Positions 20,885 to 28,870 of a stretch of 64,000 nt of DNA are shown here, piece by piece. The first letter of the stretch is position 1; each line of letters opens with the position of its first letter. A program made the translations under genes and the position numbers. Under the pieces are notes generated by a model that saw nothing but the letters and a program-made list of their open reading frames with translations, had not been told where the DNA came from and made no database searches. Where the stretch lies: NCBI GenBank assembly GCA_024683775.1, contig GCA_024683775.1_4106.1. One strand, 5' to 3'. The stretch comes from a phage.

Positions 20885-21082
20885 GTGACTAAAGCAGAAC
20901 TTGTAGCATTATTGGAATCATATCCCGATGATGCATGTATTGAAGTTGTTCATAGTGCGAGACATTTTGACATTGAAGATGTAGTACGTTATAATGACAA
21001 AGGTGTGCTCATCATGGAACTATGTATTGGTGAAATGAAAACTATACCCGAATCAGAAAAACGTAAAAATAGTAAACCGTAA
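20885..21082 (+). CDS. hypothetical protein (GTG start)
   Basis: 65 aa; SD acgagga. Confidence 0.5.
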   Translation: MTKAELVALLESYPDDACIEVVHSARHFDIEDVVRYNDKGVLIMELCIGEMKTIPESEKRKNSKP

Positions 21083-21092
21083 GGAAAATAAA

Positions 21093-21311
21093 ATGGAATC
21101 TACTCTATTAGAAGTTATTAACTCATTAAACGCTGGCGACAATGTACAAGTACTCCTTCAGGGATACCGTGTAAAAGGTTCAGTAGTTTTAGTTAATGAC
21201 ACCACTGTTGTTGTAACTGAAACTAACCCGTTTGACAGTAATGAGCTTGCTAATATCCATATTGATATTAAAAGTATTATTGGTGTTGGTGTAACTAAAC
21301 CACAAGAATAA
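21093..21311 (+). CDS. hypothetical protein
   Basis: 72 aa ORF. Confidence 0.5.
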   Translation: MESTLLEVINSLNAGDNVQVLLQGYRVKGSVVLVNDTTVVVTETNPFDSNELANIHIDIKSIIGVGVTKPQE

Positions 21312-21332
21312 CAATTGTTATTGGGGATTACT

Positions 21333-21605
21333 ATGCATTTTGAAAAATTCAATACAAATCGTAACACACGCATTGACGTTCTTTATGAAACACAAGACTC
21401 AATAAGCATTCGTACACGTAGTGGTGATGTATATCATGACTGTACTATTGGTTGGGAACAGGGAAGAACACGTAGTGCAGAATTCGATAACTATCGCTTC
21501 TACCAAGGGGACACCACAATCTGGCCTGAACACGTAGAAGATATTGCGATTGAAGATGAACATAAAGATGAATTTATAAAATTTAATCCCGAAACCGAAT
21601 CATAA
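21333..21605 (+). CDS. hypothetical protein
   Basis: ORF frame 21315-21605. Confidence 0.5.
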   Translation: MHFEKFNTNRNTRIDVLYETQDSISIRTRSGDVYHDCTIGWEQGRTRSAEFDNYRFYQGDTTIWPEHVEDIAIEDEHKDEFIKFNPETES

Positions 21606-21622
21606 ATATTGGAACAGACTAT

Positions 21623-21737
<115 letters not shown>

Positions 21738-21741
21738 AAAA

Positions 21742-21828
<87 letters not shown>

Positions 21829-21845
21829 CAATTAAAGGTTAAACC

Positions 21846-22006
<161 letters not shown>

Positions 22007-22010
<4 letters not shown>

Positions 22011-22167
22011 CACATGAAGAATGGATGAATGACATTAATTTTAGATATTCGGGTATCGGTAAATGGCTAAAGTATCATTGGGAATTCATTTCAGAGCCAC
22101 ATCTGTATGATAAACTTATCAACGATCCAGCATATGAAATGTACTTAATTGAACTACTGGTACGAAT

Positions 22168-22171
<4 letters not shown>
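22007..22171 (+). CDS. MTHEEWM mini-protein, copy 2 (54 aa)
   Basis: ATGA-coupled; MTHEEWMNDINFRYSGIGKWLKYHWEFISEPHLYDKLINDPAYEMYLIELLVRI. Confidence 0.45.
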
Positions 22172-22763
<592 letters not shown>

Positions 22764-22767
<4 letters not shown>

Positions 22768-22792
22768 CTAAATAGTTCAGTACTGATATAAT
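22764..22792 (+). promoter_or_regulatory. class-B promoter TTGACT-aaatagttcagtactga-TATAAT
   Basis: TTGACT 22764-22769, TATAAT 22787-22792. Confidence 0.55.
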
Positions 22793-22867
22793 GAATTCCA
22801 CAATCAGACGTATATGGTGTAAGTTACGTCGATGTAATCCAGAACAAGATCTCTGGTACTCTAGGAA

Positions 22868-23077
22868 GTGGTGAATGTTAACCTAGACGGGTTTGATAAT
22901 TGGACGATAGGCAATTATTACTTGACTAGCAGGTTTAAACTAGAGGTGACAGTCCTTTACCAAACTGGAAAACCGGATGGACTTTTATTTAAAAGGGTAA
23001 GGCGTGGAAATATGTTTACAGTAGTTGCTTTTAGTAGCCTGTACGCCCCACGTAAAGGTAGCCGAAAGGCAAGTTAA
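22868..23077 (+). CDS. uncertain: 69-aa ORF or part of a structured non-coding transcript
   Basis: lies between a class-B promoter and a T-run at about 23125-23133; locally more GC-rich; weak SD. Confidence 0.3.
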   Translation: MVNVNLDGFDNWTIGNYYLTSRFKLEVTVLYQTGKPDGLLFKRVRRGNMFTVVAFSSLYAPRKGSRKAS

Positions 23078-23155
23078 AACGGGTGGTTATAAAGCTGAAT
23101 TAACAGCGGCGTTTAAAAGCGTCACCATCCATTTTTTTTAATTAAAGTTGGTGAT

Positions 23156-23533
<378 letters not shown>

Positions 23534-23544
23534 GATTAAGTACT

Positions 23545-24109
<565 letters not shown>

Positions 24110-24127
24110 ATCAGTACTTTATTATGA

Positions 24128-24258
<131 letters not shown>

Positions 24259-24261
24259 AAT

Positions 24262-24351
24262 CGGTCCCGTTGCCTAGCGTCCGAAGGCAGCCGACTCATA
24301 ATCGGTCACAGTTAATGACACACCACTGGTTAGAATCCAGTCGGGACCACC
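24262..24351 (+). tRNA. tRNA, anticodon CAT (Met or lysidine-Ile), unusually long variable region
   Basis: acceptor ggtcccg/cgggacc, anticodon arm gccga-ctCATaa-tcggt, T-arm actgg-TTAGAAT-ccagt, CCA. Confidence 0.5.
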
Positions 24352-24354
24352 AAT

Positions 24355-24428
24355 TAGACTCTGTAGTTCAGTTGGTAGAACGCTTCACTCATAATGAAGA
24401 AGTCGCTGGTTCAATCCCAGTACTGACC
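24355..24428 (+). tRNA. tRNA-like, anticodon CAT; acceptor stem does not pair (possible pseudo-tRNA)
   Basis: canonical D-arm ta-gttc-agttggta-gaac, anticodon arm cttca-ctCATaa-tgaag, T-arm gctgg-TTCAATC-ccagt; 5' gactctg versus 3' actgacc are non-complementary. Confidence 0.35.
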
Positions 24429-24438
24429 ACAAAAAAAA

Positions 24439-26136
<1,698 letters not shown>

Positions 26137-26254
26137 AATATTCTCCTGAATTTTCTAAAAGTTATAATAATATTTAGTTACAATATTTATGATATAGATT
26201 AAAAAGTTGAAATGTGTTCAAAAAATGTGGTATAATACCTCTGTTGTTCACGGA

Positions 26255-26484
<230 letters not shown>

Positions 26485-26493
26485 TCAAAATTC

Positions 26494-26575
<82 letters not shown>

Positions 26576-26584
26576 TAAAACAAA

Positions 26585-26668
26585 TGGTAGTTAGCATATC
26601 GGCCTTATGCAACGGACTGTTAATCCGTGTCAGAAATGACAAGACTGGTTCGACTCCAGTACTACCAG
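26585..26668 (+). tRNA. tRNA-Asn (anticodon GTT), extended variable region
   Basis: acceptor tggtagt/actacca, D-arm gcat...atgc, anticodon arm acgga-ctGTTaa-tccgt, T-arm actgg-TTCGACT-ccagt. Confidence 0.55.
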
Positions 26669-26733
26669 CAAAACAATCATGAACCTCGGAACAATAAATA
26701 ATATCATACAGGATATTATGAGGTCTAAGGTTC

Positions 26734-27276
26734 ATGGGACGAAAACAATCAGAAGAAACACGTAAAAAAATAGCTGAATCATTAAAGGCTAAAAGTTCTA
26801 AATTACCAGAGAATGAAATAATTCAAAAATATTTAAATGGTATGCCAATTTACGGTTTAGCCAAAGAATATAAGTGTAATAGATCAAGAATAAATGATAT
26901 CGTTGAATCACATGGTGTTAAACGACCAAAATCAACCAATGAAATGCGATTTTGTGAAATACACAATAAGAATTATGAATTAAATTCACAAGGTAAATGG
27001 AAATGTTTAAAATGTGACAGTCAACGTGTTTCTGATAGACGTAGAAAATTAAAAATACTAGCCGTTGAATACAAAGGCGGTTGTTGTGAAAAGTGTGGAT
27101 ATGATAAATGCATTGCCGCATTAGAATTCCATCATGTTGATCCTTCACAGAAAGATTATTCAATTAGTCAAGAAGGTGCAACTCGTTCTTTTGAAAAAAT
27201 TAAAATAGAACTGGATAAATGTATTATGGTTTGTGCAAATTGTCATCGTGAGATTCATGATGATGAACGACAATAA
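26734..27276 (+). CDS. HNH homing endonuclease with NUMOD3-like N-terminus
   Basis: 180 aa; KQSEETRKKIAESL; CEKCGY...HHVDP...CANCHREIH zinc-finger HNH. Confidence 0.8.
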   Translation: MGRKQSEETRKKIAESLKAKSSKLPENEIIQKYLNGMPIYGLAKEYKCNRSRINDIVESHGVKRPKSTNEMRFCEIHNKNYELNSQGKWKCLKCDSQRVSDRRRKLKILAVEYKGGCCEKCGYDKCIAALEFHHVDPSQKDYSISQEGATRSFEKIKIELDKCIMVCANCHREIHDDERQ

Positions 27277-27279
27277 TTT

Positions 27280-27549
<270 letters not shown>

Positions 27550-27557
27550 GAATTTAA

Positions 27558-27959
27558 ATGAAAAAGAATGACTTGATCAAAATGCTTCAAGAGATTGACG
27601 GCAATCCAGAGATTGTTATTTGGAATGGATATGTCGATGATTATATGAACATCGAAAAAGGCTTGACTAAAATCACTCTAGTCAAAGAAACTGAACAGTT
27701 CCTTCTGGAAGCATTAGTGCACGAATGGTGCAAACGTAACAATACATTCGACATTCCAGAAGATCAACGAACTAAGATTGCAGAACAAGCTAAAAAACTT
27801 CATAAGAAACGTGAATACGATTTCCAGAACCCACATGTTACTGAAGACGAATTCAATCACTGGTACGGTAAAAAGAAATTGACAAAATATGTCATTTCAC
27901 CTAAACTACGTGGTAAGACTTCACTTGGTGTCTTCAACGCCGCTGACTTAAACTACTAG
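27558..27959 (+). CDS. hypothetical protein
   Basis: 133 aa ORF. Confidence 0.55.
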   Translation: MKKNDLIKMLQEIDGNPEIVIWNGYVDDYMNIEKGLTKITLVKETEQFLLEALVHEWCKRNNTFDIPEDQRTKIAEQAKKLHKKREYDFQNPHVTEDEFNHWYGKKKLTKYVISPKLRGKTSLGVFNAADLNY

Positions 27960-27968
27960 CGGGTATTA

Positions 27969-28236
<268 letters not shown>

Positions 28237-28281
28237 GATTCCCGATTCAGTAGCTTATAAAGCAGTTCCGTGTGTGCCTAT

Positions 28282-28334
<53 letters not shown>

Positions 28335-28335
28335 T

Positions 28336-28373
<38 letters not shown>

Positions 28374-28392
28374 AGAGGTACTTCGAGTATGC

Positions 28393-28501
<109 letters not shown>

Positions 28502-28520
28502 AAATCTTAGTAAGAAAATA

Positions 28521-28602
<82 letters not shown>

Positions 28603-28681
28603 GAAGAAACTGCTAAACAGCTTGAAGTACTTTGTAGTGCTGCACCTATGCCGACACTTGGCTTAATCAAGTTGATGCGTA

Positions 28682-28723
<42 letters not shown>

Positions 28724-28774
28724 GCCTCCCCTCAATGCGAAAGAGTATAGAGACTTGTTGGTTATCTTACTTCT

Positions 28775-28852
<78 letters not shown>

Positions 28853-28870
28853 ACAAAATAAAGGTACACT

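Follow-up and report, generated by a model that had tools for sequence, protein, structure and literature searches.

A 388-nucleotide (nt) gap between two open reading frames (ORFs; 22402-22767 and 23156-23533) in the tRNA region of a jumbo coliphage most probably holds a noncoding RNA operon, composed of a strong sigma-70 promoter, two RNAs that we term A and B, and a branched, terminator-like element that ends in eight T residues. The DNA analyzed, referred to below as the window, is a stretch of 64,000 nt from GenBank assembly GCA_024683775.1 (contig GCA_024683775.1_4106.1), which belongs to a phage of the 121Q/PBECO4 type (Asteriusvirus). RNA module A (22794-22986) is about 190 nt long and comprises seven hairpins and three pseudoknots; its covariance-model scores reach 225-240 bits, its homologues occur in six phage lineages, and its helices covary. 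It is a discrete RNA gene that phages share horizontally, with a fold kept by compensatory substitutions. All parts of the operon lie on the plus strand, and loci from other records are cited where needed by number (L).

An original prediction, made from the letters of the window, had proposed a stable structured RNA in this gap instead of, or in addition to, a 69-residue protein. The observation is confirmed and exceeds chance, with a discrete block present in unrelated phages and strong covariation, and its interpretation is supported with corrections. Compensatory changes back the fold, module A sits precisely between tRNA genes in other phages, and the 69-codon ORF is broken in most homologues while the nucleotide sequence is conserved at 85-95%. 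What had been taken for one unit from promoter to T-run is indeed structured RNA, but consists of two independent RNAs, since A and B have separate promoters in Klebsiella phage RaK2 and are parted by a tRNA gene in the metagenomic contig L023.

To our knowledge, the stable RNAs of phage tRNA clusters, such as T4 rnaC and rnaD, the T5 RNAs, and, as later additions, GOLLD and ROOL, have long been known and none has been assigned a role. Module A adds to them a compact family with very strong covariation support. Its presence in six phage lineages at unusually high nucleotide identity speaks for horizontal transfer and strong selection, and its occurrence in easily grown phages of E. coli, Klebsiella, Proteus, and Aeromonas, together with a natural deletant, phage G17, makes its function directly testable. 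At present, a spurious "hypothetical protein" is annotated across A in dozens of the phage records in GenBank, and Rfam lacks a model for it. If A does represent a functional RNA class, its small size, triple-pseudoknot fold, and culturable coliphage hosts would make it the most tractable entry yet to the 50-year-old question of what the stable RNAs of tRNA clusters do.

Fold and covariation of module A

The fold was derived from divergent members of the family, and pairs were counted on an alignment of 17 distinct sequences, with 51 proposed pairs, to a covariance model of the nested helices (R1); a second model (R2) was built from all lineages. R1 recovers all A members at 73-240 bits. Standard pairs form in 98.7% of the 848 alignment cells, as opposed to 24-40% when partners are slid by one to three columns. 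Changes on both sides of a pair are found in 30 of the 51 pairs, and the observed pairing values are attained by none of 500 shuffles. Base-pair maintenance so far above the controls marks A as a structured noncoding RNA.

The 5′ half is built of four hairpins and a long-range pseudoknot. H1 (22807-22830) pairs GACGUA (22807-22812) with UACGUC (22825-22830) beneath a loop with a conserved GGYGYR, and all six of its pairs have changed on both sides. It is followed by H2 (22839-22856; CCAGA/UCUGG), whose length varies among homologues and in which four of five pairs are doubly changed, and by H3 (22860-22887; UCUAGG/CCUAGA), doubly changed in six of six. The H3 loop carries the 3′ strand of pseudoknot PK1, GUGG (22868-22871), which also contains the GTG start of the 69-codon ORF and which pairs with CCAC at 22798-22801. 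In H4 (22895-22919), GAUAAUUG pairs with CAAUUAUU (five of eight pairs doubly changed) to close a loop with an invariant GACGAUA. The 3′ half consists of two compact pseudoknotted units. H5 with PK2 (22920-22943) joins ACUUG (22920-22924) to CAGGU (22930-22934), and the enclosed loop CUAG (22926-22929) pairs with CUAG at 22940-22943. H6 with PK3 (22945-22982) joins GGUGA (22945-22949) to UUACC (22957-22961), and its loop GUCC (22952-22955) pairs with the 3′-terminal GGAC (22979-22982). Between H6 and the 3′ strand of PK3 lies H7 (22965-22976; CUGG/CCGG).

All three pseudoknots covary. A C-G pair of PK1 becomes G-C in the Aeromonas phages; alignment by eye gives CCUCA/UGAGG in L039 and in Klebsiella phage KP13-16 and CUAC/GUAG in L062, bringing in U-A pairs. 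H5 shows exchanges of A-U for C-G and of C-G for G-C or A-U, PK2 shows U-A for A-U and A-U for G-C, and the pair types seen in PK3 are G-C, A-U, and U-A as well as U-A and C-G. PK1 ties down the 5′ end of the RNA, and PK3 its 3′ end. Several G-U pairs are invariant, for instance the U-G at alignment columns 137/147 in 17 of 17 sequences, which would read A-C on the opposite strand. Together with the constant orientation of A relative to tRNA genes, they fix the strand.

Beyond the helices, invariant residues occupy loops and junctions: GACGAUA in the H4 loop (L4), GGYGYR in the H1 loop (L1), CGGG between H3 and H4, and the motifs UUGAC..GCAG, GAGGU, and GAUGG. Their invariance suggests functional surfaces beyond a mere scaffold. 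The original prediction had pointed to many GNRA-like loops; such loops do exist, as a GCC-GAAA-GGC hairpin in module B (23061-23070) and a GUAA within L1, but most of the conserved loops are not of the GNRA type.

Three further pairings were considered and set aside. Pairing of CUAG 22940-22943 with the CUGG of H7, proposed by RNAalifold on the first seven sequences, was overruled by L030a and L039, which favor PK2. A helix between AAUUCC of the 5′ leader and GGGAUU of the H3-H4 junction fails at position 99, which varies among U, A, and C without compensation. A long-range helix GGUUUG/CAAAC shows no covariation.

Distribution, conservation, and natural deletion

A sensitive BLAST search against 50,697 phage records returned a graded series of relatives. 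Escherichia phage vB_Ec-M-J is 99.6% identical over 501 bases spanning the locus, and the region from about 22794 to 23137 is conserved, and there unannotated, in Klebsiella jumbo phages of the RaK2/K64-1 type (Alcyoneusvirus), in which module A is 94-95% identical. Only the first ~190 nt are shared, at 85-91% identity, with phages that otherwise have no DNA similarity to the window, namely the T4-like Bragavirus phages (Proteus PM2 and Pm5461, Morganella vB_Mm5, Shigella vB_SdyM_006) and the T5-like Novosibvirus phages (Proteus phages 1 and 2). In the Emmerichvirinae, T4-like phages of Aeromonas, BLAST matched a 64-nt core that a wider alignment extends to the whole element; scans of metagenomes and IMG/VR, as well as Klebsiella phage KP13-16 (Stephanstirmvirinae), contributed further members. 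The edges of the block are sharp and the flanks are unrelated among carriers. At the far end of the family, L039, L062, and the Aeromonas phages retain the fold at about 60% identity, and L030 holds two diverged copies (L030a and L030b).

The family appears phage-specific as far as was seen. No BLAST match to the region was found in 5,426 complete E. coli genomes, so that the RNA is not host-derived at that sensitivity. Fifteen loci from a pattern scan of bacterial genome contigs were chance matches, none being upheld by nhmmer or a covariance model. Most of 26 loci from a metagenome pattern scan were likewise chance matches, and two of them (L027 and L029) are nonribosomal peptide synthetase coding sequence.

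Nature has also provided a knockout. Phage vB_EcoM_G17 (L070 1595-1640 against window 22830-23150) carries a clean deletion of about 310 nt that removes A from its position 37 onward plus all of B and fuses the promoter to the next ORF; BLAST finds the deletion in Sharanji and other relatives of G17 as well. A and B are hence accessory and dispensable.

Setting among tRNA genes

The window has tRNA genes at 21649 and at 24164-28854, and the gap lies within the tRNA region that they define. ARAGORN identified seven tRNAs in the window, none of them within 22780-23150, and no tmRNA. The local rise in G+C content noted in the original prediction is borne out, with 0.39-0.41 over 22800-23100 and about 0.30-0.33 on either side.

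Where module A does not stand behind a promoter, it is embedded in a tRNA array, always in the orientation of the flanking tRNAs. In most arrays it begins 0-3 nt past the CCA of the upstream tRNA, and the next tRNA follows 10-130 nt on (T4-like, T5-like, and Stephanstirmvirinae phages). The neighbors differ: A stands between tRNA-Gly and tRNA-Asp in PM2 and in SdyM006, between tRNA-Leu and tRNA-Ser in Proteus phage 1 and in KP13-16, and between tRNA-Leu and tRNA-Met in L039, where it is part of a 13-tRNA cluster. The two copies of L030 lie on either side of a tRNA-Arg, and in Aeromonas phage 65 and in the 120-kb IMG/VR contig L062, A is found about 85 and 200 nt, respectively, upstream of a run of tRNA-Thr genes. 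The setting characteristic of stable RNAs of phage tRNA regions is thus seen for A in PM2, Proteus phage 1, SdyM006, L030, L039, KP13-16, and the window. As a side observation, the spacer of about 85 nt between the end of A and tRNA-Thr is itself conserved in Aeromonas phages 65 and AS-sw (L005 1584-1669; L006 1584-1680) and contains two good hairpins; it may be another small RNA.

The promoter

A promoter had been proposed at 22764, and a site of the sigma-70 type is indeed found at 22764-22792, with a -35 element TTGACT (22764-22769), a 17-nt spacer, a TG (22784-22785), and a -10 element TATAAT (22787-22792). As predicted from sequence, it agrees with 11 of 12 consensus positions, and its spacer falls within the 16-18 nt range of such promoters. 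It ranks among the top two sites of 21000-25000, an interval in which the number of promoter-like sites does not exceed the shuffled expectation. Transcription is predicted to start at 22798-22800. The promoter is kept in the G17 deletion variant; the same cassette precedes both a tRNA-Gly gene and A in phage ELP-22, and a near-identical one precedes B in RaK2 and L024. Phage BAU.Micro_ELP-22 carries the cassette, TTGACTAAATA(A/G)TTCAGTACTG(A)TATAAT, three times within 400 nt (L001 1565-1592, 1872-1895, and 1946-1973): the first copy lies directly before tRNA-Gly, the second is degenerate and now resembles the ribosome-binding site of a small ORF, and the third lies before A.

Module B and the branched T element

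Module B (22996-23131) opens with a long hairpin, continues with a hairpin capped by GAAA, and closes with a branched, terminator-like element, after which comes T8 (23132-23139). The folding-energy z-score of B is -2.5. In RaK2, a 42-nt insert with a promoter (TTGAAC-17-TATAAT) separates the counterpart of A (22794-22986) from B, and in L023 a tRNA-Arg gene and a promoter intervene; A and B are therefore separate, independent RNA genes, probably transcribed in tandem in the window. Homologues of B, tracked by nhmmer and BLAST, occur in Asteriusvirus, Alcyoneusvirus, L023, and a few Kuravirus podophages. The 5′ part, B1 (22996-23075), forms an irregular hairpin (23001-23007 with 23048-23054, and 23014-23028 with 23034-23046) and then the GCC-GAAA-GGC hairpin. 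Among five sequences, including one from a Kuravirus podophage, 95.8% of B1 cells are paired, as against 25-47% after sliding, and double changes occur in 4 of 19 pairs.

At the 3′ end, the branched T element (23081-23139) is closed by a 7-bp outer stem, GGGUGGU (23081-23087) with ACCAUCC (23124-23130), that encloses two hairpins (23094-23107 and 23108-23123) in a three-way junction. Eight T residues stand directly 3′ of this stem; the original prediction had correctly seen a T-run, but had placed it at about 23125-23133, some 7 nt to the left. Because the hairpin is branched, a simple terminator scan misses the element. Paralogues follow tRNA genes in RaK2 and L024, their closing stems being compensated (GGAUAGU/ACUAUCC and GGAUGAU/AUUAUCC). 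We take the T element to be the probable terminator with which stable-RNA units end in this group of phages. One paralogue in RaK2 and L024 also appears to overlap and to constitute the promoter of A, and the element may be a combined terminator and promoter module.

The T element, about 55 nt long, reappears behind tRNA genes and also closes B (L002 1944-2000 and 3591-3646; L024 345-422 and 1738-1813; window 23081-23139), with the sequence GGAUAGUUAUAAAGYUGAAUUGACAGCGAC..UUAAAA..GUCACUAUCC and an A/U-rich tail, and its DNA is promoter-like as well (TTGACA-17-TATTAT or CACTAT). A B1-like hairpin (~1499-1562) is also found in Kuravirus vB-EcoP-XT18, within a G+C-rich noncoding region of about 600 nt (L008 1150-1780). 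The 3′ segment of that region (~1564-1600), with a T-arm-like CCAGG-UGGAAUC-CCUGG, is common to many N4-like and other Escherichia and Klebsiella phages, and the region may hold further unannotated RNAs.

Comparison with known RNAs

The 4227 models of Rfam 15 were run both at gathering thresholds and at E values up to 10. At gathering thresholds, the window matches only tRNAs. At E up to 10, the interval 22600-23300 yields only P31, on B, at a chance-level 17.5 bits against a threshold of 40, and four divergent homologue loci yield nothing on A. The Infernal/Rfam scan suggested in the original prediction was thus empty of any family on A or B, as the family is undescribed. A full-text literature search by keywords and sequence strings likewise turned up no description of either module. 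A suspected resemblance to PK4 of E. coli tmRNA received no support from BLAST or Rfam.

In genomic context, the closest parallels are the T4 RNAs rnaC and rnaD (species 1 and 2) and the T5 RNAs RNAI, RNAIII, RNAIV, RNA2H, RNAX, RNA1, and RNA2. These noncoding RNAs of about 100-190 nt (719 nt for RNAX) lie, like A, among phage tRNA genes, often abutting a tRNA on the same strand; they are annotated as "stable RNAs with unknown functions," and their regions also contain homing endonuclease genes. Whereas T4 rnaC and T5 RNA1 and RNA2 are tRNA-like, A is not, and whereas A is common to several phage families, the T4 and T5 RNAs, as far as this analysis went, each keep to their own lineage. In the T4 (L015) and T5 (L072) tRNA regions, neither nhmmer nor the covariance models R1 and R2 detect anything resembling A or B, and covariance models and nhmmer give no match to A at the Kuravirus locus. 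Judged from such comparisons, A is a new family within a known kind, the stable RNAs of phage tRNA regions, with which it shares context and neither sequence nor fold. B is placed in the same kind.

The GOLLD and ROOL RNAs resemble A in being encoded by phages and prophages, often near tRNA islands, and in having elaborate pseudoknotted folds with covariation, with no known protein partner and a function that is unknown (10.1101/2024.12.08.627333). They differ from it in length (500-800+ nt vs. about 190 nt), and the Rfam models of both give no match on A. Most of them come from Firmicutes, Actinobacteria, and environmental phages, whereas the carriers of A are virulent phages that infect Enterobacterales and Aeromonas; assembly into multimeric nanocages is a further trait of GOLLD and ROOL. 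Architecturally, the 3′ half of A, in which H5/PK2 and H6/PK3 are two consecutive H-type pseudoknots separated by one nucleotide, recalls PK2-PK4 of tmRNA and the viral tRNA-like structures, and by analogy with tmRNA the two could stack into a rod. Unlike these RNAs, A has no tRNA-like domain, tag reading frame, or CCA end, and ARAGORN and the Rfam models for tmRNA and viral tRNA-like structures are negative. A further comparison is offered by ncRNA001 and ncRNA002 of PA5oct, a phage of a related jumbo clade, which are highly transcribed, ORF-free regions found by RNA-seq; they lie in the terminal repeat and not in a tRNA cluster (PMC7318152). The covariance model finds no similarity to A in that repeat.

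Proposed maturation and possible function

A transcript of the operon could be supplied by the promoter at 22764 or by read-through from upstream, and A and B would then be made and matured much as phage tRNAs are. In this scheme, host RNase E would cleave the A/U-rich linker that follows a CCA, RNase P would release the next tRNA at its start, and exonucleases would remove the remaining 3′ tail up to the folded body. With both termini hidden by PK1 and PK3, a compact, exonuclease-resistant A would accumulate.

Our tentative guess as to what A does, which we would put at somewhat under an even chance, is that it works in trans, as a ligand or decoy of high affinity, either for a conserved gammaproteobacterial factor of tRNA metabolism, translation, or RNA turnover, or for a tRNA-directed defense. 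Two circumstances accord with this guess: A is accessory, as the G17 deletion indicates, yet its loops are under strong purifying selection, and the regions in which it passes from one phage family to another are rich in homing endonuclease genes. A bolder and rather unlikely version would make A a new functional class of phage RNA with an activity of its own, be it self-assembly in the manner of ROOL and GOLLD, catalysis as a ribozyme, or the decoying of host immune systems that target tRNAs or sense RNA. Exchange of tRNA regions, driven by homing endonucleases, would then spread A among unrelated virulent phages.

Several findings weigh against this account. The predicted transcription start (22798-22800) falls within the 5′ strand of PK1, so that primary transcripts may have a shortened PK1; those from the 22764 promoter may carry just 2-4 of its pairs, and full-length A may need read-through from a promoter at 22343 followed by processing. 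H7 covaries little in the 17-sequence alignment, and in the Aeromonas phages H7 and the 3′ region are poorly conserved or degenerate. The single-sequence folding energy of A is ordinary (z = -0.73), and its nested-only minimum free energy (MFE) structure is unlike the covariation structure; the MFE z-score of the whole unit is -1.68. We regard these two z-scores as uninformative because the real fold is pseudoknotted. The family is small, at about 70 of the 50,697 phage records, and B is backed by just five sequences from about four lineages. For phages that carry A or B, the literature search turned up neither RNA-seq nor northern blot data, no specific partner or activity is indicated, and the decoy function is conjecture.

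Alternative explanations

The longest ORF in the gap, and the one named in the original prediction, is the 69-codon frame at 22868-23077, which starts with GTG just 2 nt after an AGGA and runs from the 3′ strand of PK1 across the A/B border into B. That it encodes a protein, with the nucleotide conservation reflecting coding constraint, is very improbable. The frame is whole in the window, 121Q, ELP-22, and L021, all Asteriusvirus-type copies, and several GenBank records annotate a hypothetical protein there. Despite 85-95% nucleotide identity, however, it is disrupted by a stop, a frameshift, or a lost start in 8 of 12 scorable homologues (L030b, in which the homologous start was not located, was left out): it meets a stop at codon 2 in PM2, Pm5461, and SdyM006 and after 15-16 codons in RaK2 and L030a, a 1-nt deletion in L023 shifts the frame into a stop after four codons, and the start codon is missing from L024. 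The frame cannot exist at all in five contexts in which tRNA genes border A, and in RaK2 and L023 the two modules that it bridges are separated. Substitutions compensate pairwise and are not patterned by codons, and the product belongs to no Pfam or PHROG family. By this comparison, the ORF is not a conserved gene. We judge it a non-gene, and the coding sequences deposited over A or B as "hypothetical protein" (L005 1243-1443, L001 2051-2257, and several other GenBank records) are probably spurious calls. Conservation at the DNA level, as a homing-endonuclease target or a recombination hotspot between tRNA regions with the RNA itself functionless, is equally hard to credit. Homing endonuclease genes are nearby, and the block moves among unrelated phages and can be lost, but compensatory double substitutions in 30 of 51 pairs and strand-specific invariant G-U pairs bespeak selection on an RNA fold, which L039, L062, and the Aeromonas phages keep at ~60% identity. 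Still less can be said for A or B as a degenerate or unusual tRNA, tmRNA, RNase P RNA, or group I intron remnant, a reading to which we give almost no credence. It draws on the location in a tRNA cluster, on the end of B (...CACCAUCCA), and on the "tRNA-like stable RNAs" of T5 in a similar place. Neither a cloverleaf nor a T-loop is present, however; ARAGORN is negative at the locus, and the Rfam models for tRNA, tmRNA, RNase P, and introns are empty at E up to 10 in the gap region of the window and at the four divergent homologue loci. Similarity to host ssrA or rnpB is excluded at the sensitivity of the BLAST search of E. coli genomes.

Two alternatives accept the RNA fold and assign it a different task. 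Together, A and B could regulate the ORF at 23156-23533 in cis, as a 5′ leader of the riboswitch or attenuator type. The unit does lie upstream of this same-strand ORF, its complex pseudoknotted fold resembles a riboswitch aptamer, and the T element, which also holds a promoter-like TTAACA-17-CACCAT, is terminator-like and could be conditional. In most lineages, however, A has tRNA genes on its flanks and no ORF behind it, and in G17 the downstream ORF persists despite the deletion of A and B; no Rfam riboswitch matches, and A showed no alternative pairing with the terminator. We consider a leader function quite improbable. A slightly better, though still poor, chance is given to catalysis by A, which would act as a ribozyme, cleaving itself or processing tRNAs, and so free itself or neighboring tRNAs from a polycistronic precursor. 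The precise junction with the upstream CCA in five independent contexts, the locking of both termini by pseudoknots as in ribozymes of the hepatitis delta virus (HDV) type, and the invariant loop nucleotides (GACGAUA, GGYGYR, CGGG) would fit such an activity. Yet no known ribozyme family is matched in Rfam, and the order of helices is unlike that of HDV, twister, hatchet, pistol, or glmS. Self-cleavage beside the CCA would leave a 2′,3′-cyclic phosphate on the tRNA and block its aminoacylation, host RNase E and RNase P already explain the junctions, and the copy of A in the window stands behind a promoter, where there is no tRNA that it could free.

Other features of the tRNA region

The surroundings of the operon have further features of note. 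About 400 nt downstream of B, the ORF at 23545-24102 encodes a homing endonuclease with NUMOD4 and HNH_3 domains; genes of this kind are present in the tRNA regions of RaK2, SdyM006, and T5 too. Just upstream, still within the tRNA region, 21846-22332 contains three tandem paralogous ORFs of 54 residues with overlapping ends, each starting with MTHEEWM. Farther downstream, at 24164-24430, ARAGORN reports a tRNA-Ser with the unusual anticodon ACT, a 90-nt "tRNA-Met" (CAT) with a long variable arm, and a second tRNA-Met, for which the Rfam match spans only model positions 8-63; these tRNA genes are unusual or possibly degenerate.

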